DNA of 64,000 nucleotides, from positions 72,751-136,750 of the forward strand of contig JAITPR010000016.1 of NCBI GenBank assembly GCA_031289315.1, given 5' to 3'. A model generated the notes under the pieces. It saw only the letters and a program-made list of their open reading frames with translations. It made no database searches and had not been told where the DNA came from. The position numbers and the translations under genes were made by a program. This stretch comes from Clostridiaceae bacterium (GTDB taxonomy: Bacteria > Bacillota > Clostridia > Christensenellales > CAG-917). Positions 3,052 through 61,790 of this stretch are shown here, piece by piece (the stretch's first letter is position 1; the number at the start of each line of letters is the position of its first letter).

Positions 3052-3267
3052 TTATTTTCTACTGCTTTGTGTTGCAAGCGCATATAAACCTGTTTTGACG
3101 GTTTACGGCGCGGGCGGTAGTTGTTATTTTCTACTGCTTTGTGTTGCAAGTGCATATAAACCTGTCTTGACGGTTTAGAGGCGTCCGTTCGGTTGTTATC
3201 TTTTTTCTACGGCTTTGTCGTGTTCGGCGCGGTTGTGGAGTATGTTGTGCCAGTTTCTGACCATATA
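3052..3267 (-). repeat. 72-bp tandem repeat x3: the 3' end of the DUF378 gene (including its stop) and two downstream copies
   Basis: TTAT(T/C)TTT..CTAC.GCTTTGT.GTGTT units start at 3052, 3124 and 3196. The 3196 unit is the real gene end. Confidence 0.8.
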
Positions 3268-14796: not shown

Positions 14797-15417
14797 ATGA
14801 AAAACATTATTATATTGGGGGCGCCCGGCGCCGGAAAAGGAACGCAATCCGTGCTTCTTGCGAAGGAATACGGAATACCGCAGATTTCCACGGGCGACAT
14901 ACTAAGAAAGAATATCAAGGAACAGACGGAGTTAGGCAGACAAGCTAAATCGTTTATAGACGCCGGCTTGCTTGTTCCCGACGAGGTTGTAAACAATATC
15001 GTGGCGGAAAGATTGAAACAATCCGACGCGAAAAAAGGATACATCTTAGACGGGTATCCGCGTACGCTCAATCAAGCCGAGGCGTTGGATAAAAACGCCG
15101 TCATAAACACGGTAATAAATCTCGTGGTTTCGTTTGAGGAGATAATAGTCCGCATATCGGGACGCCGCGTGTGTATATGCGGTGAAACCTATCATGTTTC
15201 AACGCTTAAGGGCGCGCAGGATTGTTCTAAGTGCGGTAGCGCCTTGTTCGTAAGAGACGACGACAAGCCGGAAACCGTTTCGGCACGTTTAAGCGTCTAC
15301 GAGGCACAAACAGCGCCGCTAATCAATTATTATGCAGCTAAGGGTATCCTGACGGATATAGTGTCGAACGGAGTTGCCAAAACGTTTGCGGCGATAAAAA
15401 AGGTGTTAGAGCGTTAA
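14797..15417 (+). CDS. adk: Adenylate kinase (zinc-lid type)
   Basis: P-loop GAPGAGKGTQ; lid CICGETYH...CSKCGS. Confidence 0.97.
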   Translation: MKNIIILGAPGAGKGTQSVLLAKEYGIPQISTGDILRKNIKEQTELGRQAKSFIDAGLLVPDEVVNNIVAERLKQSDAKKGYILDGYPRTLNQAEALDKNAVINTVINLVVSFEEIIVRISGRRVCICGETYHVSTLKGAQDCSKCGSALFVRDDDKPETVSARLSVYEAQTAPLINYYAAKGILTDIVSNGVAKTFAAIKKVLER

Positions 15418-15453
15418 CCCGCCTTAATACATAAAGGTGTTAGAGCGTTAAAC
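15398..15453 (+). repeat. Tandem duplication of the adk 3' end including the stop codon (19 bp, 35-bp offset)
   Basis: AAAGGTGTTAGAGCGTTAA occurs at 15398-15416 and again at 15433-15451. Confidence 0.85.
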
Positions 15454-15485
15454 CGCTTTGATACCGACAGAGCGGAAAACTCTCA

Positions 15486-24208: not shown

Positions 24209-24216
24209 ATAAAAAT

Positions 24217-24316
24217 GGGAACGCAATCCAAAAACTCTGTAAAATAAGATAGTTTTTGGAACGCAATCCAAAAACTTTCGAAATCAACGAAGTTTTGGGA
24301 ATGTAATCCAAAAACT
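24217..24316 (-). repeat. Three iteron-like 20-bp direct repeats at an exact 40-bp period, two with internal 10-bp inverted repeats
   Basis: GGGAACGCAATCCAAAAACT at 24217, TGGAACGCAATCCAAAAACT at 24257, GGGAATGTAATCCAAAAACT at 24297. AGTTTTTGGA-n6-TCCAAAAACT at 24251-24276. Confidence 0.85.
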
Positions 24317-24406
24317 TTTAAAATGATTTTAAGAAAGTTTTTTCGTTTCGGACAAGAAAAAGGGAAGTATAGGAGTAACTAAAAAGTCACCGGGTTGATG
24401 TTTGGT

Positions 24407-44292: not shown

Positions 44293-44460
44293 GCATGGCT
44301 TTGGAGTACGTTGTTGCTATCGCCCCGATTGCCGTTTCGGAGTTTTGAGCATGGTTGCCGCTATATCGTTTGCTATCGCCCCGATTGCCGTTTCGGAGTT
44401 TTAAGCATGGTTGCCGCTATATCGTTTGTTATCACTCCGATTGCCGTCCGGAGTTTTCAT
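44293..44460. repeat. 56-bp tandem repeat x3 in a convergent intergenic region
   Basis: Units GCATGGTTGCCGCTATATCGTTTGCTATCGCCCCGATTGCCGTTTCGGAGTTTTRA start at 44293, 44349 and 44405. Confidence 0.85.
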
Positions 44461-49792: not shown

Positions 49793-49821
49793 TTGACATA
49801 TGTTGAGTGTTGCCGCATAAT
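49793..49821 (+). promoter_or_regulatory. Promoter TTGACA-17-CATAAT
   Basis: TTGACA 49793-49798, CATAAT 49816-49821. Confidence 0.6.
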
Positions 49822-49885
49822 AAATAAAACGGAAAACAGCTTAGCAAAAGGGCTTTTTCCGTAAAACTGACAAAAAGAGGGCGCG

Positions 49886-49972
49886 ATGTTTTTCTTCGGG
49901 ATTATAATTAGCGGAATAATTATTACCATAGCGATTATTAAGATTGCTAAATTCCGCCGTTCCCCGAGATAA
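49886..49972 (+). CDS. Candidate 28-aa hydrophobic peptide MFFFGIIISGIIITIAIIKIAKFRRSPR (small membrane protein or type I toxin-like)
   Basis: AGAGGG 5 nt upstream of the ATG. One TM helix plus a basic tail. It has its own promoter and terminator. Absent from the ORF track (under 60 aa). Confidence 0.45.
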   Translation: MFFFGIIISGIIITIAIIKIAKFRRSPR

Positions 49973-50000
49973 GACGCCGCACTACTTAAAAAGGCATTTG

Positions 50001-50032
50001 AACCCCCGGGCCGTACGGCTTCGGGGGTTTTA
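50001..50032 (+). terminator. Intrinsic terminator after the small peptide ORF
   Basis: AACCCCCG ggccgtacggct CGGGGGTT plus TTTT. Confidence 0.6.
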
Positions 50033-50040
50033 AAATTTAA

Positions 50041-50133: not shown

Positions 50134-50688
50134 ATGACTGAACAACTTAGAGAAATCGGCAGGCGTCTTGCGGAATTGCGCGACGCGGCGGAGATGACGG
50201 CGGAGGCGTTCTGCAAGGAAGCCGACGTGAGTTTAAGCGAACTTGCCGCATACGAGGAGGGCAAGAAGGATTTTTCTTTTTCCTTTCTTTATAACGCCGC
50301 GCATATTTTGGGCGTGGACGTAATGGATTTGATGAGCGGTGACACTCCGCGGCTTTCGTCTTGGTGCGTGGTTAAAAAGGGCAAGGGTTACACGGTAAAC
50401 CGCCGTTCCTCCTACAAATATTCGCATTTGGCATTCACCTTCCGCGATAAGAAAGCCGAACCGTTTTTGGTTACGGTGGAGCCGAAGACGGCGGCGGAGG
50501 TTGCGCTTCATTCGCACGACGGACAGGAGTTCGACTGGATTGTTTCCGGGCGCATACTCTTTAAAATTGCCGACGTGTCTTACGAACTGGAAGCCGGCGA
50601 CAGCGTATATTTCAACTCTGCGCTTCCTCACGCGATGTCCGCATTAGACGGCAAGTCCGCGCAATTTATTGCCGTAGTCATGAAATAG
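50134..50688 (+). CDS. XRE-family HTH regulator with a C-terminal cupin domain
   Basis: N-terminal HTH_3 (LRDAAEMTAEAFCKEADVSLSELAAYEEG) and cupin (HSHDGQEFDWIVSGR...GDSVYFNSALPH). Confidence 0.88.
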   Translation: MTEQLREIGRRLAELRDAAEMTAEAFCKEADVSLSELAAYEEGKKDFSFSFLYNAAHILGVDVMDLMSGDTPRLSSWCVVKKGKGYTVNRRSSYKYSHLAFTFRDKKAEPFLVTVEPKTAAEVALHSHDGQEFDWIVSGRILFKIADVSYELEAGDSVYFNSALPHAMSALDGKSAQFIAVVMK

Positions 50689-50700
50689 GAGTAAGCTTTT

Positions 50701-52383
50701 ATGCCGCTATACGAATTATATACGGGCAAAAATCGCGACGATTTTGCCACACTAGAAGATTTACAAAAAAATTACAAACTCACGGTTCCGGACGATTTCA
50801 ACTTTGCGTTCGATTGCCTTGACCGTTTAGCCGCCGAAAAGCCGGATGCGCTTGCGTTGCTTTGGATTTCCAACGACAACGAGGAAAAGCGGTTCACCTA
50901 CGGCGATATACGCAAGCTTAGCCTAAAAGCCGCCAATTTCTTCAAAAAACACGGCATCGGCAAAGGTGATATGGTTATGCTTACCATGAGCCGCGACTGG
51001 CGGTTTTGGCCGGTACTCATGGGGCTTCACCGCATGGGCGCGACGGCGGTTCCCGCTTCCTACTTGCTCACCGCGAAGGATATAGTATACCGCATGAACG
51101 CCGCGTCTATAAAAATGCTTCTCACAACTCCGCGTTTCGGCGTTACTCAAGCCATGGAGGAGGCGCTTTCACAGTGTCCTACCGTTAAAAAGCTAGCCGT
51201 GTTTGGCGGCAAGCTGCCCGCGTCAAATCTGTGGATAGATTTCGATAAGGAGTTGGAAGCCGCGCCGGAAACGCCGTTTAAACGTTGCACAATCAAGTCT
51301 GATACCATGCTTATGGCATTTTCGTCCGGCACAAGCGGATACCCCAAAATGGTTCAGCACGACTACACGTATCCGTTGGGACACATTCCGACCGGCTGTT
51401 TTTGGCAACGTTGTATCGACGGCGGTCTGCACCTCACCATATCCGACACCGGTTGGCTTAAAAGTCTTTGGGGCAAGATGTACAGCCAATGGCTTGCCGG
51501 CAGCGCGGTTTTTTGCTACGACTTCGACAAGTTCTCCGCGTCCGACATCCTTGAAAAAATCGAAAAATATAAGGTGACTACCTTCTGCGCCCCCCCGACG
51601 ATGTACCGCTATATGATTAAAGAGAACCTCAAAAAATATGATTTCTCTTCACTCAAGCACTGCTGCGCCGCCGGCGAAGCCCTTAACCCCGAAATCTATA
51701 AGGTGTGGTTTGCCGGTACCGGGCTTAAAATATTTGAGGGCTTCGGACAAACCGAAACCACCCTGTCCTGTTGGACCGGCTATCCGTGGATGCAACCGCG
51801 CTTAGGCTCTATGGGGCTTCCCGCCCCCGGCTACCGCATGATAGTCTGCGACGAAACCGGCGTCGAACTGGGCGCCGGCGTCACCGGAGAAATTTGTATC
51901 CGTACCGACGACGCGGGCGGCGGTAAGCCCTACGGGCTGTTCAAGGGCTACTACCGCGACGCGGAGATGACCTCCCAAATTTGGCACGACGGCATATATC
52001 ATACCGGCGATACCGCCTATAAGGACGAGATGGGCTTCCTCTGGTACGTGGGGCGTATGGACGACGTGATTAAATCCTCCGGCTACCGCATAGGTCCATT
52101 TGAGGTCGAGTCCGCACTCATGGAACACCCCGCCGTCACCGAATGTGCCGTTACCGGGCTGCCGGACCCCGAACGCGGTTTCGTCGTCAAAGCCACCGTG
52201 GTTCTCTCCACCGGTTATACGCCCTCCGACGCGCTCACTAAAGAGCTGCAAAACCATGTCAAAAAGGTGACCGCTCCCTATAAATACCCCCGAGTAATCG
52301 AGTATGTCGACGCGCTTCCCAAAACCGTTAACGGCAAAATCCGCCGCGTAGAAATCCGTAACCGCGACATCGAAAAGAAATAG
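50701..52383 (+). CDS. AMP-forming acyl-CoA synthetase (medium-chain/AcsM-like)
   Basis: AMP-binding motif FSSGTSGYPK, plus YHTGD and SSGYRIGPFEVE. Confidence 0.9.
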   Translation: MPLYELYTGKNRDDFATLEDLQKNYKLTVPDDFNFAFDCLDRLAAEKPDALALLWISNDNEEKRFTYGDIRKLSLKAANFFKKHGIGKGDMVMLTMSRDWRFWPVLMGLHRMGATAVPASYLLTAKDIVYRMNAASIKMLLTTPRFGVTQAMEEALSQCPTVKKLAVFGGKLPASNLWIDFDKELEAAPETPFKRCTIKSDTMLMAFSSGTSGYPKMVQHDYTYPLGHIPTGCFWQRCIDGGLHLTISDTGWLKSLWGKMYSQWLAGSAVFCYDFDKFSASDILEKIEKYKVTTFCAPPTMYRYMIKENLKKYDFSSLKHCCAAGEALNPEIYKVWFAGTGLKIFEGFGQTETTLSCWTGYPWMQPRLGSMGLPAPGYRMIVCDETGVELGAGVTGEICIRTDDAGGGKPYGLFKGYYRDAEMTSQIWHDGIYHTGDTAYKDEMGFLWYVGRMDDVIKSSGYRIGPFEVESALMEHPAVTECAVTGLPDPERGFVVKATVVLSTGYTPSDALTKELQNHVKKVTAPYKYPRVIEYVDALPKTVNGKIRRVEIRNRDIEKK

Positions 52384-52384
52384 A

Positions 52385-52560
52385 GGAATAAGGCATAGTT
52401 CTTTTTGCCCGCGCAAAAAGAACCCAAAGTTGGTGCGCCTTGCGAGGTTCGCAAGGCGCACTGCGCAAGCTTGAAGTTTGACCCTGATTACTTGAAAAAC
52501 GCGGTTGACGCAGGATTATATCCTTAGCGTCAACCGCGTTTTTAAATTCATTAGTGTTAA
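52385..52560. repeat. Mosaic multi-hairpin repeat, copy F (H1, an extra 13-bp hairpin, H3, H2 terminator 52494-52544)
   Basis: GTTCTTTTTGcccgcgCAAAAAGAAC; GTGCGCCTTGCGAggtTCGCAAGGCGCAC; CAAGCTTgAAGTTTG; AAAAACGCGGTTGACGC..GCGTCAACCGCGTTTTT. Confidence 0.85.
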
Positions 52561-52658
52561 CCCTCTCACTTACCGTTCTTTATGTTCGTTATTTCTTCTC
52601 AATAGGAGCGGACAAAACAGATTTTTTTGGTTTTTGCGGTAAATTATAAAATTAATGC

Positions 52659-52687
52659 TTGACAAGCGGCAAATCGTGAAATACAAT
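52659..52687 (+). promoter_or_regulatory. aro-operon promoter TTGACA-17-TACAAT
   Basis: TTGACA 52659-52664, TACAAT 52682-52687. Confidence 0.65.
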
Positions 52688-52739
52688 GTAAATAGACTTG
52701 AAATCCGTCTACGGGGAAAAAGTCTACGGATAACCTTAT

Positions 52740-52796
52740 ATGAACAAGAATTTCGCTTTTTACGCATACTTTTACTTTACGACCTATAAGGCGTAA
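52740..52796 (+). CDS. Candidate Phe/Tyr-rich leader peptide MNKNFAFYAYFYFTTYKA (18 aa)
   Basis: Hand translation gives 4 Phe and 4 Tyr within 12 consecutive codons. It lies between a promoter and an intrinsic terminator, upstream of Phe/Tyr biosynthesis genes. The SD is weak. Confidence 0.6.
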   Translation: MNKNFAFYAYFYFTTYKA

Positions 52797-52836
52797 TTTT
52801 TCCGTGCGGTTTTAAGCGAAGCAATTAAAGTTAAGT

Positions 52837-52866
52837 AAAGACCGCCTGAATGGGCGGTTTTTTTAT
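52837..52866 (+). terminator. Attenuator-type intrinsic terminator in the aro leader
   Basis: ACCGCC tgaatg GGCGGT plus T8. The 5' arm can alternatively pair with 52806-52813. Confidence 0.7.
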
Positions 52867-53082
52867 TCCCGTTAGCCTATGCGGAACACGCGGGGCTTGC
52901 GGAGGAAAAACAAATAACAGCGTCGTCGCTAGCTTGCGCGGAGAAAATCAAAGCGGCACACACATGCTGCAAAGCCGGAGCGGACGCGGCGAAACAAAGT
53001 GGCACACAAGTGTGGCAGAAAGAGCGGAAGCGCACCTTTGCGTGCTAAAACAAATAAAACAAGTAAAGAGGCATAGATAAGT

Positions 53083-54096
53083 ATGATAGTGGTAATTAAA
53101 AACAATCAAGAAGAGAAGCAAGTAAACAACTTGATTAAGTGGATTAAGAGTTTAGGCTTAGCGGTGAACGTGAGCAAGGGCGAAAGCTCCACGGTGCTGG
53201 GGCTAATCGGCGACACCACGAAGGTGGACATGGAACTTATAGCTTCGCTTGACATAGTGGAGACCGTGAAGCGCATTCAAGAGCCGTTCAAGAACGTGAA
53301 CCGTAAGTTTCATCCGCAAGACACGGTTGTGGACATCAACGGGTGCAAATTCGGCGGCGGGTTTTTTCAGGTAATCGCGGGTCCGTGTTCTGTGGAGTCG
53401 GAGGAGCAAATTATCGCCATAGCCAAAGCCGTTAAGGCGGCGGGAGCGACCGTACTCAGGGGCGGAGCCTTTAAACCGCGTTCTAGCCCGTATTCGTTTC
53501 AAGGTATGGGCGGCAGCGGCTTAGAGCTATTGTTCAAGGCACGCGAGGTTACCGGCATGCCGATTATAACGGAAATAGTCGACGTGCGGCATATCGACTT
53601 ATTCAAGGACGTGGATATAATTCAGATAGGCGCGCGTAACATGCAGAACTTCGAGCTTTTGAAGGAACTGGGGCGCATAAGAAAACCGGTACTGTTAAAG
53701 CGTGGTCTTGCCGCGACGATAGAGGAATGGCTGATGAGCGCGGAATATATCATGGCGGGCGGCAACGCGGAAATAATCCTTTGCGAACGCGGTATAAGAA
53801 CCTACGAGCCGTTCACTAGAAATACGCTTGACCTATCGGCAATTCCGGTAGTCAGAGAACTTACGCACTTACCCGTAATAGTCGACCCATCCCATGCTTC
53901 GGGGCTGTCGCGGTTGGTGCCGCCCTTGTCGCTTGCGTCGGTTGGCGTAGGCTGTGACGGGCTGATAATAGAGGTACACAATGACCCGATGCACGCGAAA
54001 TCGGACGGTGCACAGTCGCTGAAGCCGGAGCAGTTCGCCGATTTGATGGGAAAGATACGTCCGCTCATGGACATAGTAGGCAAGCACACCTTTTAA
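53083..54096 (+). CDS. aroF: 3-deoxy-7-phosphoheptulonate (DAHP) synthase, type I-beta, with an N-terminal ferredoxin-like regulatory domain
   Basis: KDO8PS-like core (GPCSVESEEQ, KPRSSPYSFQG, DPSH) preceded by a ~75-aa domain, as in the Thermotoga enzyme. Confidence 0.9.
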   Translation: MIVVIKNNQEEKQVNNLIKWIKSLGLAVNVSKGESSTVLGLIGDTTKVDMELIASLDIVETVKRIQEPFKNVNRKFHPQDTVVDINGCKFGGGFFQVIAGPCSVESEEQIIAIAKAVKAAGATVLRGGAFKPRSSPYSFQGMGGSGLELLFKAREVTGMPIITEIVDVRHIDLFKDVDIIQIGARNMQNFELLKELGRIRKPVLLKRGLAATIEEWLMSAEYIMAGGNAEIILCERGIRTYEPFTRNTLDLSAIPVVRELTHLPVIVDPSHASGLSRLVPPLSLASVGVGCDGLIIEVHNDPMHAKSDGAQSLKPEQFADLMGKIRPLMDIVGKHTF

Positions 54097-54167
54097 GTAA
54101 GCGGGCAATAAAAAAATATTTTCGTTCGGGCAAGCCTCGCGAAATAAAAAAATGAACGGAACGCAAA

Positions 54168-54256
54168 TTTATGCGGGGCAAAGCGTGTTTATAAGACGAG
54201 GTCTTACGGCGGCGTATGCGGGGCAAAGCGTGTTTATAAGACGAAGGTCTTAGGCG
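54168..54256 (+). repeat. 45-bp tandem repeat x2, each with the palindrome TAAGAC-n-GTCTTA, directly upstream of tyrA
   Basis: ATGCGGGGCAAAGCGTGTTTATAAGACGA(A)GGTCTTA occurs at 54171 and 54216. Confidence 0.85.
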
Positions 54257-54263
54257 TAGAGTT

Positions 54264-55136
54264 ATGAAGATAGGTATAATAGGGTTGGGCTTAATAGGCG
54301 GGTCTTTGGGGCGTGCGGTGAAAAAGAAAACGCCGCACACGGTTTTCGCTTGCGACAACGACGCCGGAGCCATGCTGAAGGGCGCGCTTCTTAACGCGTA
54401 CGACGAGGAATTGACGGAGGACAATGCGGGGGAGCTTGATATGCTAATATCCGCGGTGTATCCGGCGGCATCCGTCGCGGCAATTTGGCGGTACCTACCT
54501 AAGCTTAAAGCCGGTGCTATAGTTTTCGACAGCGGAGGCAACAAGCGCGGCGTGGTTGAGGCTATGCGGAATATGTCGGAAAAGCGCAAGGATTTATATT
54601 TTTTCGGCGTTCACCCTATGGCGGGCAGAGAATTTTCCGGCATATCGCACTCCACGCCGTCGCTTTTTGAGAACAGCACAGTGCTTATGGTACCGTTGGG
54701 CGCACCGATAGAGGTTTTGTCTTGCGTGAAGGGCTTATTTTTGGATTTAGGGTGCGAAGGCGCGGTTATAACCAACGCGGAGGAACACGACAAAATTATT
54801 TCGTATACCTCACAGTTGGCGCACGTTGTTTCTAGCGCGTATATAAAAAACGACATTGCCGCGGAGCATTACGGGTTTTCGGCGGGCAGCTTCCGCGACA
54901 TGACAAGAGTTGCCAAGCTTAATTCGGATATGTGGGCGGAGCTTATGTTGGATAACCGCGAAAATCTGTTGGAAAATTTGGATATATTCGCCGCGCGCAT
55001 AGGCGAATATAGAAACGCGCTTGCCGTGTGCGACGCGGAAGAGCTGAAACGGCTTCTTGCGGAGGGTAACGCCGCAAAGGAAAGGGTGGAGAGCAACAGA
55101 AAACAAAAGCTTTCCGCCAGAATAGACGGAGTATAA
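54264..55136 (+). CDS. tyrA: Prephenate dehydrogenase
   Basis: Rossmann motif KIGIIGLGLIGGSLG; HPMAG; context. Confidence 0.9.
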   Translation: MKIGIIGLGLIGGSLGRAVKKKTPHTVFACDNDAGAMLKGALLNAYDEELTEDNAGELDMLISAVYPAASVAAIWRYLPKLKAGAIVFDSGGNKRGVVEAMRNMSEKRKDLYFFGVHPMAGREFSGISHSTPSLFENSTVLMVPLGAPIEVLSCVKGLFLDLGCEGAVITNAEEHDKIISYTSQLAHVVSSAYIKNDIAAEHYGFSAGSFRDMTRVAKLNSDMWAELMLDNRENLLENLDIFAARIGEYRNALAVCDAEELKRLLAEGNAAKERVESNRKQKLSARIDGV

Positions 55137-55143
55137 GCTTAGA

Positions 55144-55212
55144 GGGCGTGGACAATACGAGATGACGACTTGCGAGGCAAGAAAATATTTTACATAGCGA
55201 ACTGTCCGCACC
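55144..55212. repeat. GTGGACA-palindrome repeat, full copy between tyrA and aroB
   Basis: GGGCGTGGACAATACGAGATGACGACTTGCGAGGCAAGAAAATATTTTACATAGCGAACTGTCCGCACC. Ends 22 nt before the ATG at 55235. Confidence 0.9.
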
Positions 55213-55234
55213 AATCTTAGATAGATGGAGATTT

Positions 55235-56290
55235 ATGAATAACGAAATAATTACCGTAAGGGTAAACGCTTCCACAAGCTACGACGTGACGATAGGGCGC
55301 GGCATTTTGCAATATGTCGGAAAGTACATTGCGGATTTGGGCAATATCGACAAGGTGGCGATTGTCACCGACGACCTTGTTGATGCGCTGTATTCCGACA
55401 CAGTTGAGAAGTCTTTACGCGAATGCGGTCTTAAAACCGTGAAAAGCGTGTTTAAAAACGGCGAAAAGAGTAAAACTTTGTCTACGGTCGGCAAAATTAC
55501 CGATGACCTTGCTAAGGCGGAGTTGACCCGTTCGGATTTAGTGCTTGCCTTAGGCGGCGGAGTAGTCGGCGATATGGCGGGCTTTGCCGCCGGCATATAT
55601 ATGAGGGGAATAAGATACGCGCAGGTACCCACAACCCTGCTTGCGATTATAGACTCGTCCGTGGGCGGTAAGACCGGCGTCAACCTTCGTACCGGCAAAA
55701 ATTTAGCGGGGCTTTTCAATCAGCCCGAATTGGTGTTCGCGGATACGGACACGCTTAAGACGCTTCCCGAGGAGCAGATGCTCAACGGTATCGGCGAGGG
55801 TATAAAGTACGCCGTTTTGGACGGCGGAGAGCTTTTCGACATCATGGAGGCGGGGCTTGACGACGGTAACACGGTTCGTTTTGCGGAGCTTTGCGTAAGT
55901 TATAAGCGCGATGTGGTGGAGGCGGACGAGCGCGAAAGCGGCATAAGAAGGCTGTTAAATTTAGGGCATACGGTCGGACACGCCATTGAAAAGCTTAGCC
56001 GCTATACCGTTTCTCACGGGTTTGCCGTCGCGTCCGGTTTAAAGGTAATATCGGAGGCGTGCGTAAGGCGCGGACTTCTTGATGCGGGTGAGTGCGCGCG
56101 CATAACGGCGCTACTCGACAAGTACGGATTGGGAGCGGACGCCGGATATCCCGTGAGCGCTTTGATTCGCGAAATGCCACACGACAAAAAACGCGTCGGC
56201 GCTAAAATAAGTCTAGTCATAGTAAACGCCATAGGAAAGTGTGCGTATATTTCCGTCGAAACCGCGCGTTTAAAGGAGTTTTTTTCATGA
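55235..56290 (+). CDS. aroB: 3-dehydroquinate synthase
   Basis: GGGVVGDMAGFAA, VPTTLLA.IDSSVGGKTG and HTVGHAIE motifs. Confidence 0.95.
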   Translation: MNNEIITVRVNASTSYDVTIGRGILQYVGKYIADLGNIDKVAIVTDDLVDALYSDTVEKSLRECGLKTVKSVFKNGEKSKTLSTVGKITDDLAKAELTRSDLVLALGGGVVGDMAGFAAGIYMRGIRYAQVPTTLLAIIDSSVGGKTGVNLRTGKNLAGLFNQPELVFADTDTLKTLPEEQMLNGIGEGIKYAVLDGGELFDIMEAGLDDGNTVRFAELCVSYKRDVVEADERESGIRRLLNLGHTVGHAIEKLSRYTVSHGFAVASGLKVISEACVRRGLLDAGECARITALLDKYGLGADAGYPVSALIREMPHDKKRVGAKISLVIVNAIGKCAYISVETARLKEFFS

Positions 56291-57900
56291 ACGTGACGAT
56301 TAAGCCGGGGCGTGTTTGCGGCGCGGTTGAGGTTATAACCTCAAAGTCATTCGCTCACCGCGCCTTGCTTTGTGCCGCGCTTGCTTCTCTTAACGGCGGC
56401 GAAACCGCCTTAAAGGACGTCAACGACAGCGACGACGTGAACGCCACTGTAGGCGCGCTTGCCGCGTTGGGTTTTATCTTCAGGCGTGAGGGCGGTACGG
56501 TTACCTTTCAAAAAACCGACAAGGCAAGCTTAAATCAAAATGCCGTTATAGATTGCCGTGAGAGCGGTTCGACGTTGCGTTTCATACTACCCGTGGCGGC
56601 GGCGCTCGGGGTGAATGCGGAGATTACCGGCACCAAAAAATTGTTGAGCCGTCCGCTAGACGACCTTATCGGCGCGTTGACCTCTCACGGGATTACCGTG
56701 TTCCGAAACGGAGAACGCATAAATATTTCCGGCAAGCTTACGGGCGGTGTGTTTAATATCGCGGGCAACGTCAGTTCGCAGTTTGTAACCGGGCTTATGC
56801 TTGCCGCGCCGCTACTTGTAGGCGGAGCCGAAATAAGAATTTACGAGGGACTTGTGTCGGAGGACTACGTTTGGCTTACCGCTAACATCATGGGAAAATT
56901 CGGCATTTTATTTAAGTCTAACGCCGGTAGCTTCTTTAAAACGGACGGCGGCAATGCGGCGGAAAATAAGGACGACGACGGTTTATTTAAGACGGACGGC
57001 GGCAACGCAGCGGAAAATCAAACCGGCGGAAGGAGTTTTTTTTCACTTGCAGTCGAAGCCGTGAAAGAAAATTTTAACACGTATCGCCGCTCGTTAGGCG
57101 GCAAGCTGACGGTTGAGGCGGACTGGTCGAACGCGGCGTTTCCGCTTGCGGCGGGCGCCGTCGCGGGGGATAAGGGCGGTGTTACCGTTTCGAACGCGGC
57201 GCTTTCCACTCAAGGCGACATACGCATATTGGGTATTCTAGAGAGGTCGGGCGCGGCGGTGGACTTCCACGGCATCGGCGAGTGGTATTTAAAGCTTGTC
57301 GGGTCGTTGGAGCTGTCGGAGAGTTATTTAGGCGACGATAGAGAAAATATTGGGGCGAAAGCCATTGCCAAACGATTCAATGAGTCGCGGCACCGTGCGA
57401 CGGTCAACGAGGTTTCCGAGGGCAAGGTAGCGGGTGGCGGATTGAGCAACGATAGCGGTTTATATCCCGTAACCGCCGCGCCGAAAAAGCTTAAGGCGTT
57501 CAAGGTTGATGCTGAGAACATTCCCGACATGGTACCCATACTTTCCGTGCTTGCGGCAAACGCAAGGGGCAAGAGCGTGATAACCAACGTGAACCGCTTG
57601 TGCGAAAAGGAAAGCAACAGGCTGGCGGCAATCATGGAAAATCTTACGACTATGGGCGGCAAGATAAGCTATGACGAAAGCGTTCCCGGCGGCGCCTTGT
57701 ATATAAAGGGTGGCAAGCTTAAGGGAGCGGTGTTGAAATCCCACAACGACCACCGTATGGTGATGTCGGCGGCGGTAGCCGCGCTTACGGCAAATGGCGA
57801 AACGACGATTTTAGACGCCGAAGCGGTAAATAAATCGTATCCCGGATTTTTCGACATGATGAAATCGCTGGGGGCAAGCATCACGGTAAGCGGCGATTGA
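56287..57900 (+). CDS. aroA: 3-phosphoshikimate 1-carboxyvinyltransferase (EPSP synthase) with two lineage-specific insertions
   Basis: SKSFAHRALLCAAL, RESGSTLRF, LCEKESNRL and HNDHRM motifs. ATGA start/stop overlap with aroB. 537 aa, versus the ~430 aa I expect for this enzyme. Confidence 0.92.
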   Translation: MNVTIKPGRVCGAVEVITSKSFAHRALLCAALASLNGGETALKDVNDSDDVNATVGALAALGFIFRREGGTVTFQKTDKASLNQNAVIDCRESGSTLRFILPVAAALGVNAEITGTKKLLSRPLDDLIGALTSHGITVFRNGERINISGKLTGGVFNIAGNVSSQFVTGLMLAAPLLVGGAEIRIYEGLVSEDYVWLTANIMGKFGILFKSNAGSFFKTDGGNAAENKDDDGLFKTDGGNAAENQTGGRSFFSLAVEAVKENFNTYRRSLGGKLTVEADWSNAAFPLAAGAVAGDKGGVTVSNAALSTQGDIRILGILERSGAAVDFHGIGEWYLKLVGSLELSESYLGDDRENIGAKAIAKRFNESRHRATVNEVSEGKVAGGGLSNDSGLYPVTAAPKKLKAFKVDAENIPDMVPILSVLAANARGKSVITNVNRLCEKESNRLAAIMENLTTMGGKISYDESVPGGALYIKGGKLKGAVLKSHNDHRMVMSAAVAALTANGETTILDAEAVNKSYPGFFDMMKSLGASITVSGD

Positions 57901-57959
57901 ACGACGTAAACCCGTGCGGGGCAACCGGCAATTGCCGGGCGGACTAAAACACGGATACA

Positions 57960-58056
57960 AAAAACGGCGGTTAGTAGGGTGTAAGCCTTAATCGGCGGTT
58001 AAGCAGATACAAGCTTCAAGCGGCGGTATAAGTAAACCTTAAGCGGCGGTTGAATA
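57960..58056 (+). repeat. Four phased copies of a small palindromic motif CTTAA-nCGGCGG-TTAAG-like
   Basis: CGGCGGT occurs at 57965, 57993, 58021 and 58044 (spacing 28/28/23), each flanked by TTAA/TAAG-type inverted arms. Confidence 0.7.
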
Positions 58057-58088
58057 AACAAACAGAGCGTATAAAATAAGGGTTGCTA

Positions 58089-59165
58089 ATGAAAGGCAGT
58101 TTAAAAGTAGAGATATACGGAGAGTCGCATTCCGAGGAAGTCGGCGTACGCATTTACGGAGTACCGACGGGCTTGCATATTGATACGGAGGAATTGCAAC
58201 GTTTTACCGACAGACGGAAGAGCGCTAACAACGAGTTTTCCACGCCGCGCCGTGAGAACGACACCGTAGAGATAACCGCCGGAATAGCGGACGGCACCAC
58301 CGACGGCGGCGTTATATGCGCGCGCGTTAAAAACCTAAATATAAAGAAATCCGACTATGAAAAAATAAAGACGGTGCCGCGTCCGTCACACGCCGACTAC
58401 TGTTCCTATATAAAGTACGGCAAAATCCCGTCCGGCGGCGGGCGGTTTTCCGGGCGTATGACATTGCCGCTTTGTATTGCGGGCGGCATAGCCGCACAGA
58501 TATTAAAATGCGCGGGCATTGAGGTCGCGGCGTATGTTTCGGAGATAGGGGGTGTAAAGGGGCGTACCTACTTAGACGGCGTTCCGTCCCTTTCGGAGGT
58601 GCGCGCGGCGCAAAGGACGGGGCTTTCCGTACCCGCGGAAGACGGCGCTAAGGAGGCAATCCGCGCGGTCTTGCGTTTGGCGGCGGCGGAGGGTAACTCC
58701 GTCGGAGGCGCCGTGGAGTGCATTATATACGGCATACCGGCGGGAGTAGGCGGCGCGTTGTTCGACGGCTTAGAGGGAGCGATAGCTCAAACGGTTTTTG
58801 CCGTTCCCGCCGTCAAGGGCTTGGAGTTCGGGTGGGGCTTCTTATTCGCGTCCGCGAAGGGTAGCGACGCAAACGACGGCTACGGAGCCGACGCGTACGG
58901 AAACATAGTGCAACTAAGCAACAATTGCGGCGGTATTTACGGCGGTATTTCGTCGGGAGCGCCGGTGCTGTTCCGCGTGGCGTTCAAGCCCACTCCGTCC
59001 ATATCGCTTCCGCAGAAAAGCGTCGACCTAGTTTCTCATAAGGACGAGGAACTAGTCATAAAGGGCAGGCATGATTGCTGTATCGTGCCGCGCGCGTCGG
59101 TGTGCATTGAGGCGGCGGCGGCGCTTGCCGTGTTCGGCGTACTGCTTGCAGAAAAAAAGTTATAA
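58089..59165 (+). CDS. aroC: Chorismate synthase
   Basis: GESHS, RPSHADY and GGGRFSGR motifs. ATG at 58089 preferred to the TTG at 58083. Confidence 0.94.
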   Translation: MKGSLKVEIYGESHSEEVGVRIYGVPTGLHIDTEELQRFTDRRKSANNEFSTPRRENDTVEITAGIADGTTDGGVICARVKNLNIKKSDYEKIKTVPRPSHADYCSYIKYGKIPSGGGRFSGRMTLPLCIAGGIAAQILKCAGIEVAAYVSEIGGVKGRTYLDGVPSLSEVRAAQRTGLSVPAEDGAKEAIRAVLRLAAAEGNSVGGAVECIIYGIPAGVGGALFDGLEGAIAQTVFAVPAVKGLEFGWGFLFASAKGSDANDGYGADAYGNIVQLSNNCGGIYGGISSGAPVLFRVAFKPTPSISLPQKSVDLVSHKDEELVIKGRHDCCIVPRASVCIEAAAALAVFGVLLAEKKL

Positions 59166-59190
59166 ATTCTAAATATAACTAAAGAAAAAA

Positions 59191-59232
59191 CGGATTGTCC
59201 GTACCCAAAGAAACAAGGGGATGTCCGCACCC
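59191..59232. repeat. Two arm-end fragments of the GTGGACA-palindrome repeat
   Basis: CGGATTGTCCGTACCC (59191) and GGGATGTCCGCACCC (59217). The second ends 18 nt before the ATG at 59251. Confidence 0.6.
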
Positions 59233-59250
59233 AACAAGGAGATGATAAAT

Positions 59251-60387
59251 ATGATTGAAGCTTACCGCGCAAAACTGGACGCTATCGACAACAAAATCGC
59301 AGAGCTTTACCGCACCCGCATGGAGCTTGCACGCGTTATAGGGCTGTACAAAGCCAACAACGACTTGCAAGCGTTTGACGCCGCGCGGGAAAAAGAGATA
59401 ATAAACCGCGTTACAAAGGAATTCCCAACCGAGCTTAAAGCGTACGCAAAGCAACTTTTCGATACGCTGATTGAGACTAGCAAGGCGTATCAGAGCCGCT
59501 TTTTGAAGCCCGATTTGGACGAGCTTTTGGAAAACACCTTAAAATCCGCCGACAAGCCTTTCCCGGTGAGCGCAAGCGTCGCGTGTCAAGGTGTGGAGGG
59601 TTCCTTCTCGTCGATTGCCGCCGAAAAATTGTTTACCATATCCGACATAACCTATTTCAAAAATTTTGAAAGTGTGTTCAACGCGGTGGAAAAGGGACTT
59701 TGCGAATACGGCGTACTGCCTATCGAAAACAGCACCGTGGGTTCCGTGAACGAGGTGTACGACCTCATGAAACGCCATCGCTTCTATATAGTCAGGAGCT
59801 TGCGGTTGCCGGTGGCGCACAGCTTGCTGGCAAAGCGCGGCACGGAGCTTAAGGACGTCAAGGAAATATTCTCTCACGAGCAGGCAATCAATCAATGCAG
59901 TGAGTATTTGACGAAGCTTGGTAGCAAGGTAAAGGTGACGGTGTGCGAAAATACCGCCGCCGCCGCGCGCGCCGTTGCCGACAGTAAGAGAAAAGACGTC
60001 GCCGCGATAGCTTCCGAAAATTGTTGTTCCTTGTATTCGCTTAGCGCGCTTGCGCGGGGCGTTCAGAACAAAGAGAGAAATTACACGCGGTTTATCTGCA
60101 TTTCTAAAAATCCGGAGATTTTTGAGCGCGCGGACAAGGTGAGCATCATGGTAAGCTTGCCGCACGAGTCGGGTAGCCTTAACAGACTTCTCAATAAATT
60201 TTCGGTTTTGGGGCTGAATTTAACTAAATTAGAGTCGCGCCCGCTAGAGAGCAGTGAATTCGAATTCATGTTTTATTTTGACTTCGACGCGGATTTGAGG
60301 AAGCCGGAGGTAAGAAATCTTATTGCGGAGTTGAGCGTAACCTTGCCGCAATTCATCTTCTTAGGCTGCTATTCGGAAAAGATGTAA
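59251..60387 (+). CDS. pheA: Bifunctional chorismate mutase / prephenate dehydratase (P-protein) with a C-terminal ACT domain
   Basis: Chorismate mutase N-terminus (R..LD.ID..I..L...R), PDT domain (ENS.VGSV, TRF) and ACT. Start chosen 9 nt after AAGGAG; the ORF-track ATG at 59221 lies inside the repeat. Confidence 0.9.
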   Translation: MIEAYRAKLDAIDNKIAELYRTRMELARVIGLYKANNDLQAFDAAREKEIINRVTKEFPTELKAYAKQLFDTLIETSKAYQSRFLKPDLDELLENTLKSADKPFPVSASVACQGVEGSFSSIAAEKLFTISDITYFKNFESVFNAVEKGLCEYGVLPIENSTVGSVNEVYDLMKRHRFYIVRSLRLPVAHSLLAKRGTELKDVKEIFSHEQAINQCSEYLTKLGSKVKVTVCENTAAAARAVADSKRKDVAAIASENCCSLYSLSALARGVQNKERNYTRFICISKNPEIFERADKVSIMVSLPHESGSLNRLLNKFSVLGLNLTKLESRPLESSEFEFMFYFDFDADLRKPEVRNLIAELSVTLPQFIFLGCYSEKM

Positions 60388-60419
60388 AAGAACACGGTAT
60401 AAAACGGATTTATAAAGTT

Positions 60420-61715
60420 ATGAACCTTGCCTTAATCGGCGAAAGGCTGTCGCACAGCTATTCCGCTTATATTCACAACGCGCTTGGAAGCGGGTATCAA
60501 CTCGTACAGCTTCCGCGCGCTACCGTGGCGGAATTTGTGAAGACCAACGGTTTGGACGGCTACAACGTCACCATACCCTATAAGGAGGAGGTCATTCCTC
60601 ATCTTGACTGGGTGTCGGGCGGCGCGTCCGCAATAGGCGCGGTGAACACAGTTACTAAGTGCGGCGGCAAAAGCTTCGGTCACAACACCGACCTCGTTGG
60701 TATGTGGGCGGCGTTTTTACGGCGCGGCATTTCCTTAAATGGCAAAACCGTCATGATTTTGGGCGGCGGCGGCACCTCGAAGACGGCGCAAGCCTTGAGT
60801 GCCGGTGCGGCGCATGTTTACGTTGTAGGCAGAAATGGCGCGATAAACTATGATAATTATACCAATTATGCCGCCGATACCGATATTTTGATAAATACCA
60901 CGCCGGTCGGTATGTATCCGGACATGGATGCCGCTCCGCTTTCCTTAAAGCCTTTCACGAGGTTGAAATTTGTTTTCGACGCCATTTACAACCCGAAAGA
61001 AACGGAGTTGCTGTACGAAGCGCACGTCTTAGGCATACCTGTGGAGAACGGGCTTTTTATGCTTGCGGCGCAAGCGAAGTTCGCGTACGATTTATTCGGG
61101 GCTTATTACAACGCGGACGCGCGCGGCTTACCCGCCCCTAAGGACGGTTCTAGAAGACTGCTAACCGCGCCGGACGGCTGTACGAAAAGCGGCGTTGCGG
61201 AGATAGAACGGCTTTATAATTTATTGCGTTTAAAGACCTGCAACATAGTGCTTATAGGCATGCCGGGTTGCGGCAAAAGCTCTAAGGGTCGCGTCATAGC
61301 CGATACCTTGAGCTATGAGTTCGTCGATACTGACGATTTGATTGTCCGCGCGGCGGGAAAAAGTATTCCGGAAATATTTGCGGACGGCGGCGAAGCCGTG
61401 TTCCGCGATTACGAGGAAGCCGCCGTGCGCGAAGCCGCGGCAAGGAAAAACGCCGTGATAGCCGTGGGCGGCGGGGCGGTATTGCGCGGAGAAAACCGCA
61501 AGCGTTTAAGGCGTTGCGGCACGGTGGTTTACGTCAAGCGCGATTTAAACGAGCTTGCCTTTGACGGGCGTCCTCTTTCTAAGGATGCGGCGGCGGTAGA
61601 AAAGATGTACGGCGTTCGTAAGCCGTTATACGAAGGCACTGCGGACGTCACGGCGGAAGGTCGCGGAACCGTGGAAGAATGCGCGGCGGATATATTGAGG
61701 CTTTTGGGTCGGTAA
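60420..61715 (+). CDS. aroE/aroK: Shikimate dehydrogenase fused to shikimate kinase
   Basis: AroE motifs GYNVTIPYK, AVNTV and GHNTD, then P-loop GMPGCGKSS and DTDD of AroK. Confidence 0.9.
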   Translation: MNLALIGERLSHSYSAYIHNALGSGYQLVQLPRATVAEFVKTNGLDGYNVTIPYKEEVIPHLDWVSGGASAIGAVNTVTKCGGKSFGHNTDLVGMWAAFLRRGISLNGKTVMILGGGGTSKTAQALSAGAAHVYVVGRNGAINYDNYTNYAADTDILINTTPVGMYPDMDAAPLSLKPFTRLKFVFDAIYNPKETELLYEAHVLGIPVENGLFMLAAQAKFAYDLFGAYYNADARGLPAPKDGSRRLLTAPDGCTKSGVAEIERLYNLLRLKTCNIVLIGMPGCGKSSKGRVIADTLSYEFVDTDDLIVRAAGKSIPEIFADGGEAVFRDYEEAAVREAAARKNAVIAVGGGAVLRGENRKRLRRCGTVVYVKRDLNELAFDGRPLSKDAAAVEKMYGVRKPLYEGTADVTAEGRGTVEECAADILRLLGR

Positions 61716-61790
61716 AAAACGCTAAAAAAACGCTAAAAAAACGGCAAAAAAAACGGCAAAAAACCATAAAAAACGCCTTTAAATACCGCA
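61713..61790 (+). repeat. Phased A-tract array (A6-8 every 10-12 bp) starting at the aroE/aroK stop codon
   Basis: TAAAAAACGC TAAAAAAACGC TAAAAAAACGGC AAAAAAAACGGC AAAAAACCAT AAAAAACGCC. Confidence 0.85.

Follow-up and report, generated by a model that had tools for sequence, protein, structure and literature searches.

A predicted Phe/Tyr leader-peptide attenuator upstream of an aromatic amino acid operon in a Clostridia genome

Textbooks tie leader-peptide attenuation to Proteobacteria, and T-boxes control entry to the shikimate pathway in Bacillota other than those considered here. His-rich leaders are known too in several Firmicutes. The closest described relatives of such systems upstream of aroF are the ‘aromatic amino acid attenuators’ uORF-12 and uORF-13, found in Clostridium novyi (Stav et al. 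2019, BMC Microbiol 19:66, PMC6429828). The uORF-13 class comprises 336 examples in Clostridiales, Bacillales, Thermoanaerobacterales, Negativicutes and metagenomes, including gut and environmental ones; about half of the examples precede aroF, and tyrA is the next commonest neighbor (PMC6429828). Each consists of a short open reading frame (ORF) with a conserved F-Y-F inside a stem, P1, and a terminator that follows, and the class was proposed to work like the trp attenuator (PMC6429828). A further element, uORFC-13-1, precedes aroF in Acholeplasma and has a promoter, a ribosome-binding site, Phe codons and an intrinsic terminator directly downstream (Brewer et al. 2021, PMC8632094). In Corynebacterium glutamicum, aroR lies before aroF and encodes a Phe-Tyr-Phe leader at which stalling raises transcription, as shown under Phe limitation according to the account of Neshat et al. 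2014 given in PMC11802643 – though the aroR peptide and RNA structure are unrelated to the uORF-12/uORF-13 class, per Stav et al. (PMC6429828). Here we analyze a candidate leader-peptide attenuator upstream of aroF in a 64,000-nucleotide stretch of a Clostridiaceae bacterium genome (contig JAITPR010000016.1 of assembly GCA_031289315.1, positions 72,751 to 136,750), which we refer to as the window and number from its first letter.

We consider it very likely that this element is a ribosome-mediated attenuator of the operon aroF-tyrA-aroB-aroA-aroC-pheA-aroE/K and that it responds to the charging of tRNA-Phe and tRNA-Tyr, a reading drawn from its sequence, its predicted folds and comparison with related loci. 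A preliminary description of the locus had named most of the parts: a TTGACA-17-TACAAT promoter, an 18-codon leader ORF with four Phe and four Tyr codons in 52752-52787, a weak Shine-Dalgarno (SD) sequence, an alternative pairing of 52806-13 with 52838-45, a terminator with a T8 tail and a 216-nucleotide (nt) gap from there to aroF. The promoter is where it was placed, matches the consensus at 11 of 12 positions and is the top-scoring promoter-like site of 52300-53200; the ORF was confirmed base by base, with Phe and Tyr at eight of the twelve consecutive codons 5-16; the pairing agrees with the sequence; and the gap has the length given. The terminator stem is likewise present, though its tail is not T8 but seven T (52858-64), then A, then TT. 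Only GGA (52728-30, 9 nt before the ATG) was found as an SD upstream of the leader start codon. We detected no second intergenic mini-ORF enriched in aromatic codons in the 64-kb window.

The RNA between the leader ORF and the end of the terminator can form mutually exclusive structures. Nine nt past the leader stop, GCGGTTTT (52806-13) is complementary to AAGACCGC (52838-45) over 8 base pairs (bp), one of them G-U, and this same segment, GCGGTTTT / GCGGUUUU, exactly duplicates the terminator 3' arm at 52854-61. The terminator has the core ACCGCC (52841-46) / GGCGGT (52853-58), from which RNAfold builds a stem of 11 bp (52837-47 / 52852-62; -14.9 kcal/mol), with UU A UU after it; a simple terminator scan missed this plus-strand site because the extension of the stem by the A-tract and U-tract consumes the tail. 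The minimum free energy (MFE) fold contains in addition a hairpin that the preliminary description had overlooked, in which CGCAU (52763-67, from the Tyr-Ala-Tyr codons) pairs with GUGCG (52804-08) and UUCGCUUU pairs with AAGCGAAG. This 1:2 protector hairpin encloses the Tyr-Phe-Tyr-Phe codons, and it shares the GCG of region 2 with the antiterminator strand GCGGUUUU. Its presence would complete a four-region attenuator (Table 1).

Folding with the ribosome footprint masked, and with region 4 left out to mimic RNA not yet made, is consistent with stalling as the switch, the mechanism first proposed for this locus. Free of ribosomes, the leader is predicted to form the 1:2 hairpin plus the terminator (-47.1 kcal/mol; z = -2.65 relative to shuffled sequences). 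With the F/Y codons masked, as in a stall anywhere in the run, and region 4 unmade, the predicted structure is an antiterminator, 52800-13 / 52838-51, at -13.1 kcal/mol; with the ribosome masked at the stop codon this antiterminator is reduced to 6 bp and -6.2 kcal/mol. The masked folds – predicted structures throughout – thus reproduce the classical 1:2 / 2:3 / 3:4 logic.

In the mechanism that we propose, transcription would start at ~52694 from the promoter at 52659-87, and a ribosome would translate the 18-codon leader (52740-96). With ample Phe and Tyr, the ribosome would reach the UAA stop and cover the start of region 2 (52804-08); once it is released, region 1 (52751-67) would pair again with region 2 (52804-21). 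Either way, region 3 (52837-47) would be free for region 4 (52852-62), and RNA polymerase would terminate in the U-run. When Phe-tRNA or Tyr-tRNA is scarce, a ribosome stalled within 52752-87 would cover region 1, and GCGGUUUU (52806-13) could pair with AAGACCGC (52838-45) while region 4 is still to be transcribed, so that no terminator would form and the operon would be transcribed. With the two kinds of codon intermixed, lack of either Phe or Tyr should be enough to derepress the operon; such an OR gate would fit an operon making both. Four parts of this scheme are inferences: that the ORF is translated, that ribosomes stall on it, how this is timed against RNA polymerase and how the operon really responds to Phe and Tyr.

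Table 1. Features of the candidate attenuator and the operon downstream, with window coordinates.
Feature	Coordinates	Strand	Description
Promoter, sigma-70-type	TTGACA 52659-64; TACAAT 52682-87	+	17-nt spacing; consensus match 11/12
5' untranslated region (UTR) hairpin	52694..52725	+	AGACUU...AAGUCU with inner CCGU/ACGG stem; seen in MFE fold
Leader ORF	52740..52796	+	18 codons plus stop, MNKNFAFYAYFYFTTYKA
Regulatory codon run	52752..52787	+	4 Phe (TTC, TTT x3) and 4 Tyr (TAC x3, TAT) in 12 codons; proposed stalling sites
Region 1	52751..52767	+	UUCGCUUU 52751-58 and CGCAU 52763-67, within F/Y codons; pairs with region 2 in MFE fold
Region 2	52804..52821	+	GUGCG (to region 1), GCGGUUUU 52806-13 (to region 3), AAGCGAAG 52814-21 (to region 1)
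Region 3	52837..52847	+	Predicted terminator 5' arm AAAGACCGCCU; partner is region 2 (antiterminator) or region 4
Region 4	52852..52867	+	Predicted terminator 3' arm GGGCGGUUUUU plus U-rich tail
Spacer, terminator to aroF	52867..53082	+	216 nt, T-poor (13% T), 64% purine; aroF ATG at 53083
Operon aroF, tyrA, aroB, aroA, aroC, pheA (chorismate mutase/prephenate dehydratase), aroE-aroK	53083..61715	+	NCBIfam

The genes downstream match the leader codons. NCBIfam bore out the aro, tyr and phe assignments of the preliminary description: aroF, aroB, aroA and aroC pass the model cut-offs, and the matches of tyrA (best 145.6 bits against a cut-off of 295), pheA (PRK11898, 216.3 against 219) and aroE-aroK (~139 against 252) are clear but lie below them. 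The product of pheA is a chorismate mutase/prephenate dehydratase, and aroE-aroK is a fusion. The operon covers the common pathway together with tyrA and pheA, and the Phe and Tyr codons of the leader correspond to its end products. Within the operon we found no convincing internal terminator on the plus strand.

To place the element in a comparative setting, we collected aroF loci by an AroF-alignment scan with one genome per species. The resulting 80 loci belong mostly to Oscillospiraceae, Ruminococcus, Acutalibacteraceae, Faecousia, Lachnospiraceae and unnamed Clostridia metagenome-assembled genomes (MAGs), and 77 of them entered the upstream counts. Taking as a mini-ORF any frame that opens with ATG and has six or more F/Y among ten residues, we found one in the 300 nt before aroF at 43 of the 77 loci, compared with 0 of 77 reverse complements and 5 of 1540 shuffled sequences. 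A count independent of the start codon gave 45 of 77 loci, 4 of 77 reverse complements and 12 of 1540 shuffles. Most of the sampled Clostridia loci therefore have an F/Y leader before aroF, and leaders of this kind occurred in Oscillospirales-like, Lachnospiraceae and Veillonella genomes. A hairpin plus U-rich tail stands before aroF in 48 of 49 leaders, usually 20-55 nt past the stop codon and 15-50 nt from aroF; the finder used for this count tolerates interrupted U-runs, since a stricter version demanding at least 4 T directly after the stem missed 17 real terminators. An SD-like motif is present in ~38 of 51 leaders and a near-consensus promoter in most; the promoters of the relatives are as strong as that in the window and lie 16-60 nt upstream of the leader ATG. 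Taken together with the masked folds, these homologous F/Y leaders with terminators in most related Clostridia support the stalling mechanism. In L003 (2299), L028 (2302) and L083 (1320), the leader ATG lacks an SD and follows a good -10 hexamer, accompanied by a TTGACA -35, by only 6-7 nt; judging by this spacing, these leader peptides seem to be translated from leaderless mRNAs. At a further locus, L010, an FMN riboswitch (1340-1454) lies ~1 kb upstream of the aroF leader.

Alignment with related leaders showed that it is not only the F/Y-rich mini-ORF that is conserved but, in close relatives, the alternative helices as well. The AroF of the window is 100% identical to a protein listed by NCBI for a "Clostridiaceae bacterium" MAG; the next best protein is 78% identical, and homologous leaders precede aroF in four closer relatives with 74-78% identical AroF: L081 (MLNQTSYYAYFYFFAGFHRS), L083 (MSNKFFFSNVYFYFYGRFDS), L084 (MNDNKYFAFSSFFYYGYFFDKR) and L087 (MNKGFSYAYAYPYYTSF, with a strong SD, AAGGAG). 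All four carry (G/A)UGCGG(U/C) ~6-18 nt past the stop, matching the 3' arm of their own terminator, GGCGG(U/C)UUUU. A CGCAUAC/GUGUGCG helix involving the Tyr-Ala-Tyr codons is kept in four of the five members of this subfamily, with one compensatory change. The flanks of the antiterminator also change in compensating fashion: GCGGUUUU/AAGACCGC in the window corresponds to GCGGCG/CGCCGC in L083, AUACGGUUAUUUUU/AAGAUGACCGUAU in L001 and GCGGUCGUU/AGCGACCG in L002.

The same architecture can be followed into a wider family. In an alignment of 14 more distant leaders (A4, including L012, L017, L021, L029, L030, L034 and L038), the F/Y codons UAUUACUUUUUU pair with AAAAAGUAAUAG. The helix of F/Y codons with AAAAGUAAUAG is 91% paired and has five doubly changed pairs, and 11 of the 12 terminator pairs show compensatory changes; in both cases the observed values were reached by 0 of 500 shuffles. 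The C-terminal Lys-Lys-stop of these leaders (AAAAAGUAA) is complementary to their Tyr-Phe-Phe codons (UUACUUUUU). Because AAAAAGUAAUAG, the complement of the F/Y codons, contains a stop codon, this pairing explains the recurrent Lys-Lys-stop ending; as far as the alignment tells, the end of Oscillospirales-type leader peptides is dictated by RNA pairing and not by peptide function. The A4 antiterminator (UUUGUGCUGC with GCCGCACAGA) is 74% paired, compared with 32-63% in slid registers, and support for it comes mainly from conserved complementarity, not covariation.

A covariance model (R1) built from the 14 A4 leaders, with the window and its close relatives excluded, matches the window at exactly 52740-52867 on the plus strand over its full length (27.6 bits, E ~0.005 in 534 kb). 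This is its single match in the window, though weak beside the 80-112 bits of seed members. Outside its seed, R1 also matches several loci, among them one in a Veillonella MAG (L072) and two in Lachnospiraceae (L026, L044); the window element thus counts as a divergent member of a wide family of homologs.

We searched Rfam 15 at gathering thresholds across the whole window and 20 related loci, and at E up to 10 across 52500-53150. No family, and thus none of the leader-peptide models, reached its gathering threshold over the leaders, either in the window or in ten leader-bearing relatives. The scores in the window were 28.4 bits for RF01859 Phe_leader (threshold 55), 23.9 for RF00512 Leu_leader (50) and 13.7 for RF00513 Trp_leader (41), and the sub-threshold Phe_leader and Leu_leader alignments rest mostly on the terminator hairpin. 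The Lactococcus leu/phe leader motif, cited as a precedent in the preliminary description, is not among the 12 matches with E up to 10 in 52500-53150, nor is it matched at gathering level in the window. T-box RF00230 gave no match in the window; as a positive control, the Erysipelotrichaceae MAG L057 has a 124-bit T-box at 2232-2465 before aroF, in place of a leader peptide.

These searches bear on whether the element might be a translation-independent RNA switch, in which U/A-rich UACUUU repeats and their complements fold into a structure recognized by a protein, tRNA or ligand, the F/Y frame being incidental. The conserved UAUUACUUUUUU/AAAAAGUAAUAG helix does imply constraint at the nucleotide level, since F/Y codons form one of its strands in many relatives, and attenuation by T-boxes or proteins is common in Bacillota, as the T-box of L057 illustrates. 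We nonetheless regard such a switch as very improbable. Neither a T-box nor another Rfam family was matched, and an ATG opens the frame of the aromatic run at 43 of 77 loci and at none on the other strand, with SD and promoter usually at the correct distance. Moreover, the peptides differ in sequence and length yet keep F/Y even where the RNA sequences differ completely (the window, Oscillospirales and WG types, the last described below), and Phe and Tyr are each encoded by both of their codons (UUU/UUC, UAU/UAC).

Several observations weigh against a working ribosome-mediated attenuator in the window. The leader SD is only GGA, compared with GGAG or AGGAG in most relatives, so that the efficiency of translation is uncertain. 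Of region 2, no more than ~3-4 nt would be hidden under a ribosome at the stop codon. At 216 nt the spacer departs from the 15-50 nt seen in relatives, and L085 and L086, two of the six fairly close relatives fetched, have no leader. Covariation in the A4 antiterminator is not significant (74% paired, 71% in shuffles, with 32 of 500 shuffles reaching the observed value), and a cross-locus test of the antiterminator duplex gave a modest result (mean rank 0.40, p = 0.02). Finally, the Firmicute members of the class are, as far as we found in the literature, predictions from sequence and modeled structure, and the window locus is another; the main uncertainty lies in this reliance on prediction and in the weak SD.

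Some of these points would also suit a decaying relic, with a poorly translated leader, a terminator that acts as a constitutive or leaky damper and control exerted elsewhere, for instance through feedback inhibition acting on the regulatory domain of DAHP synthase or through elements in the spacer. The SD and spacer set the window apart from most relatives, L085 and L086 would have lost the leader altogether, and the window has an extra 52-nt structured 5' UTR in which an ATCCGT/ACGGAT pairing could hide the GGA. Decay is hard to reconcile, though, with the integrity of the ORF, all eight F/Y codons, both alternative helices, the terminator and the near-consensus promoter. The start-codon region of the leader ORF is unpaired in the MFE fold, and in the absence of translation the fold points to efficient termination, so that an essential pathway would be starved. 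We therefore judge a relic improbable and prefer a functional attenuator.

The 5' UTR itself, 52 nt from the -10 to the leader ATG, merits separate description. Its hairpin (52694-725) is absent from the closer relatives, whose 5' UTRs are 0-32 nt long. Two alternative pairings are predicted, AGACUU/AAGUCU (52694-99 / 52720-25) or AUCCGU/ACGGAU (52703-08 / 52726-31), of which the second would mask the weak SD of the leader ORF. In L087 (~262-295), the motif ACGGATAA occurs as an inverted repeat (ACGGATAA...TTATCCG) around the -10 hexamer and could, from its position, be an operator.

The spacer raises a different question – whether the leader is instead an independent small gene or small RNA with its own promoter and terminator, the aro operon being transcribed from a separate promoter within the 216 nt. 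The promoter and terminator are indeed complete, the gap to aroF is long, and a comparable self-contained mini-gene lies at 49886-49972. We looked for such a second promoter and rejected it: 52867-53082 has no promoter-like site on the plus strand. In relatives the leader unit stands only 15-50 nt from aroF, leaving no room for a promoter, and its association with aroF is conserved across families. We give an independent gene hardly any credence and take the leader to belong to the aro operon.

What the spacer does contain are degenerate direct repeats of ~45 nt (52946-71 / 52992-53017, 77% identical; 52895-910 / 52932-47; 52978-88 / 53022-32). It has no Rfam match, no BLAST similarity to related loci, no dispersed copy in the rest of the window and no TRF array, and its fold z-score is only -1.9. 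A 76-residue ORF (52850-53080) that spans nearly all of it has no Pfam match and is expected by chance because the sequence is T-poor. The simplest reading is that the spacer is probably a lineage-specific expansion by tandem duplication without a specific role. The DNA of the window has other short tandem duplications, with periods of 22-72 nt and about two copies each, at 54170-54256, 3052-3199, 15399-15464, 24216-24324, 44314-44457, 59181-59234 and 61713-61777; they are frequent in its intergenic parts. The gap between aroF and tyrA holds a fresh 45-nt duplication, 95% identical, with a UAAGAC/GUCUUA hairpin in each copy.

Two further features of the neighborhood were noted. The aroA ORF (56239-57900, plus strand) encodes 553 residues, and its Pfam/NCBIfam match is split into three stretches. 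EPSP synthases usually have ~430 residues; these observations suggest an insertion of ~120 residues, and the listed GTG start, which overlaps aroB, may not be the true one. Upstream of the attenuator, 49793-50035 (plus strand) forms a self-contained mini-gene with its own promoter (TTGACA at 49793) and SD, an ORF of 28 codons (49886-49972) and a terminator rich in GC. Its peptide, MFFFGIIISGIIITIAIIKIAKFRRSPR, contains ten Ile, and the ORF lies just upstream of genes for a helix-turn-helix (HTH)-cupin regulator (50134-50688) and an MbcS-like acyl-CoA synthetase (50701-52383); it may be a leader that senses Ile or may yield a small membrane peptide.

Four loci from Clostridiaceae, Pelosinus and another Clostridia genome (L069, L071, L074, L076) have a longer, Trp-containing leader, FYF(Y/I)WG(F/Y)YFFS (e.g., IYYFYFYWGFYFFSVSYFAW), ~100-300 nt upstream of aroF, with a long enclosing stem and then a terminator. 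These are probably the published uORF-13 type; L069 and L071, as Clostridiaceae, served as proxies for the C. novyi uORF-13 exemplar. R1 fails to detect the leaders of all four loci. Since loci resembling the exemplar thus carry a longer leader that R1 does not detect, the window may belong to a sister subfamily. A stronger version – that the window element and the Oscillospirales-type leaders are a class distinct from the published uORF-12/uORF-13 motifs and the dominant aroF control in gut Oscillospirales-like Clostridia – strikes us as possible but rather unlikely. Were it true, the hallmarks of the class would be F/Y codons that form a strand of the protector helix, a complement that dictates the C-terminal Lys-Lys-stop and some apparently leaderless members, and the purine-rich repeat spacer of 216 nt could add a second layer of control in the window genome.

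These results suggest that predicted leader-peptide attenuation is the common control of entry to the shikimate pathway in many Clostridia, being found at no fewer than 43 of the 77 sampled aroF loci. The preliminary description named only scattered precedents in Bacillota. The uORF-12/uORF-13 elements (PMC6429828) and the Acholeplasma uORF (PMC8632094) contradict this, and the novelty was overrated: F/Y leader attenuators before aroF were already predicted in Firmicutes in 2019, and the window locus adds another case. Current understanding is unchanged by this result; the comparative picture is of some value, if unsurprising. The window leader is a short example with eight interleaved Phe/Tyr codons, which makes it convenient for studying ribosome-RNA polymerase coordination in anaerobes and a two-amino-acid OR gate. 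For genome annotation, such mini-ORFs with terminators are better labeled attenuators than hypothetical genes, and the family, absent from Rfam, could be added.

Set beside the known systems, the window element shares with pheL/pheA and trpL/trp of Enterobacteria the regulatory codons in region 1, the exclusive 1:2, 2:3 and 3:4 helices and a stop near region 2. It differs from them in having no homology to either and in mixing Phe and Tyr codons to control a whole common pathway, whereas each enterobacterial leader senses a single amino acid. It resembles aroR, as summarized in PMC11802643, in placing a leader peptide with Phe-Tyr-Phe before a DAHP synthase operon; by the same account, aroR is actinobacterial, has three regulatory codons as opposed to eight and is unaffected by Tyr supply. 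With uORFC-13-1 it has in common a Phe-codon uORF and a terminator before aroF, but that element, compared here by its description, has 24 examples, all from Acholeplasma or environmental sequences, and shows a U-run coding for at least one Phe in place of an F/Y mix. The closest likeness is to uORF-13, itself a bioinformatic prediction whose model is absent from Rfam 15. Compared with the published description, as distinct from the authors' model, the window element has every described feature: its peptide contains YFYF, the codons for which (52767-78) lie in the interior loop of the predicted 1:2 hairpin, and a terminator, aroF and tyrA follow.

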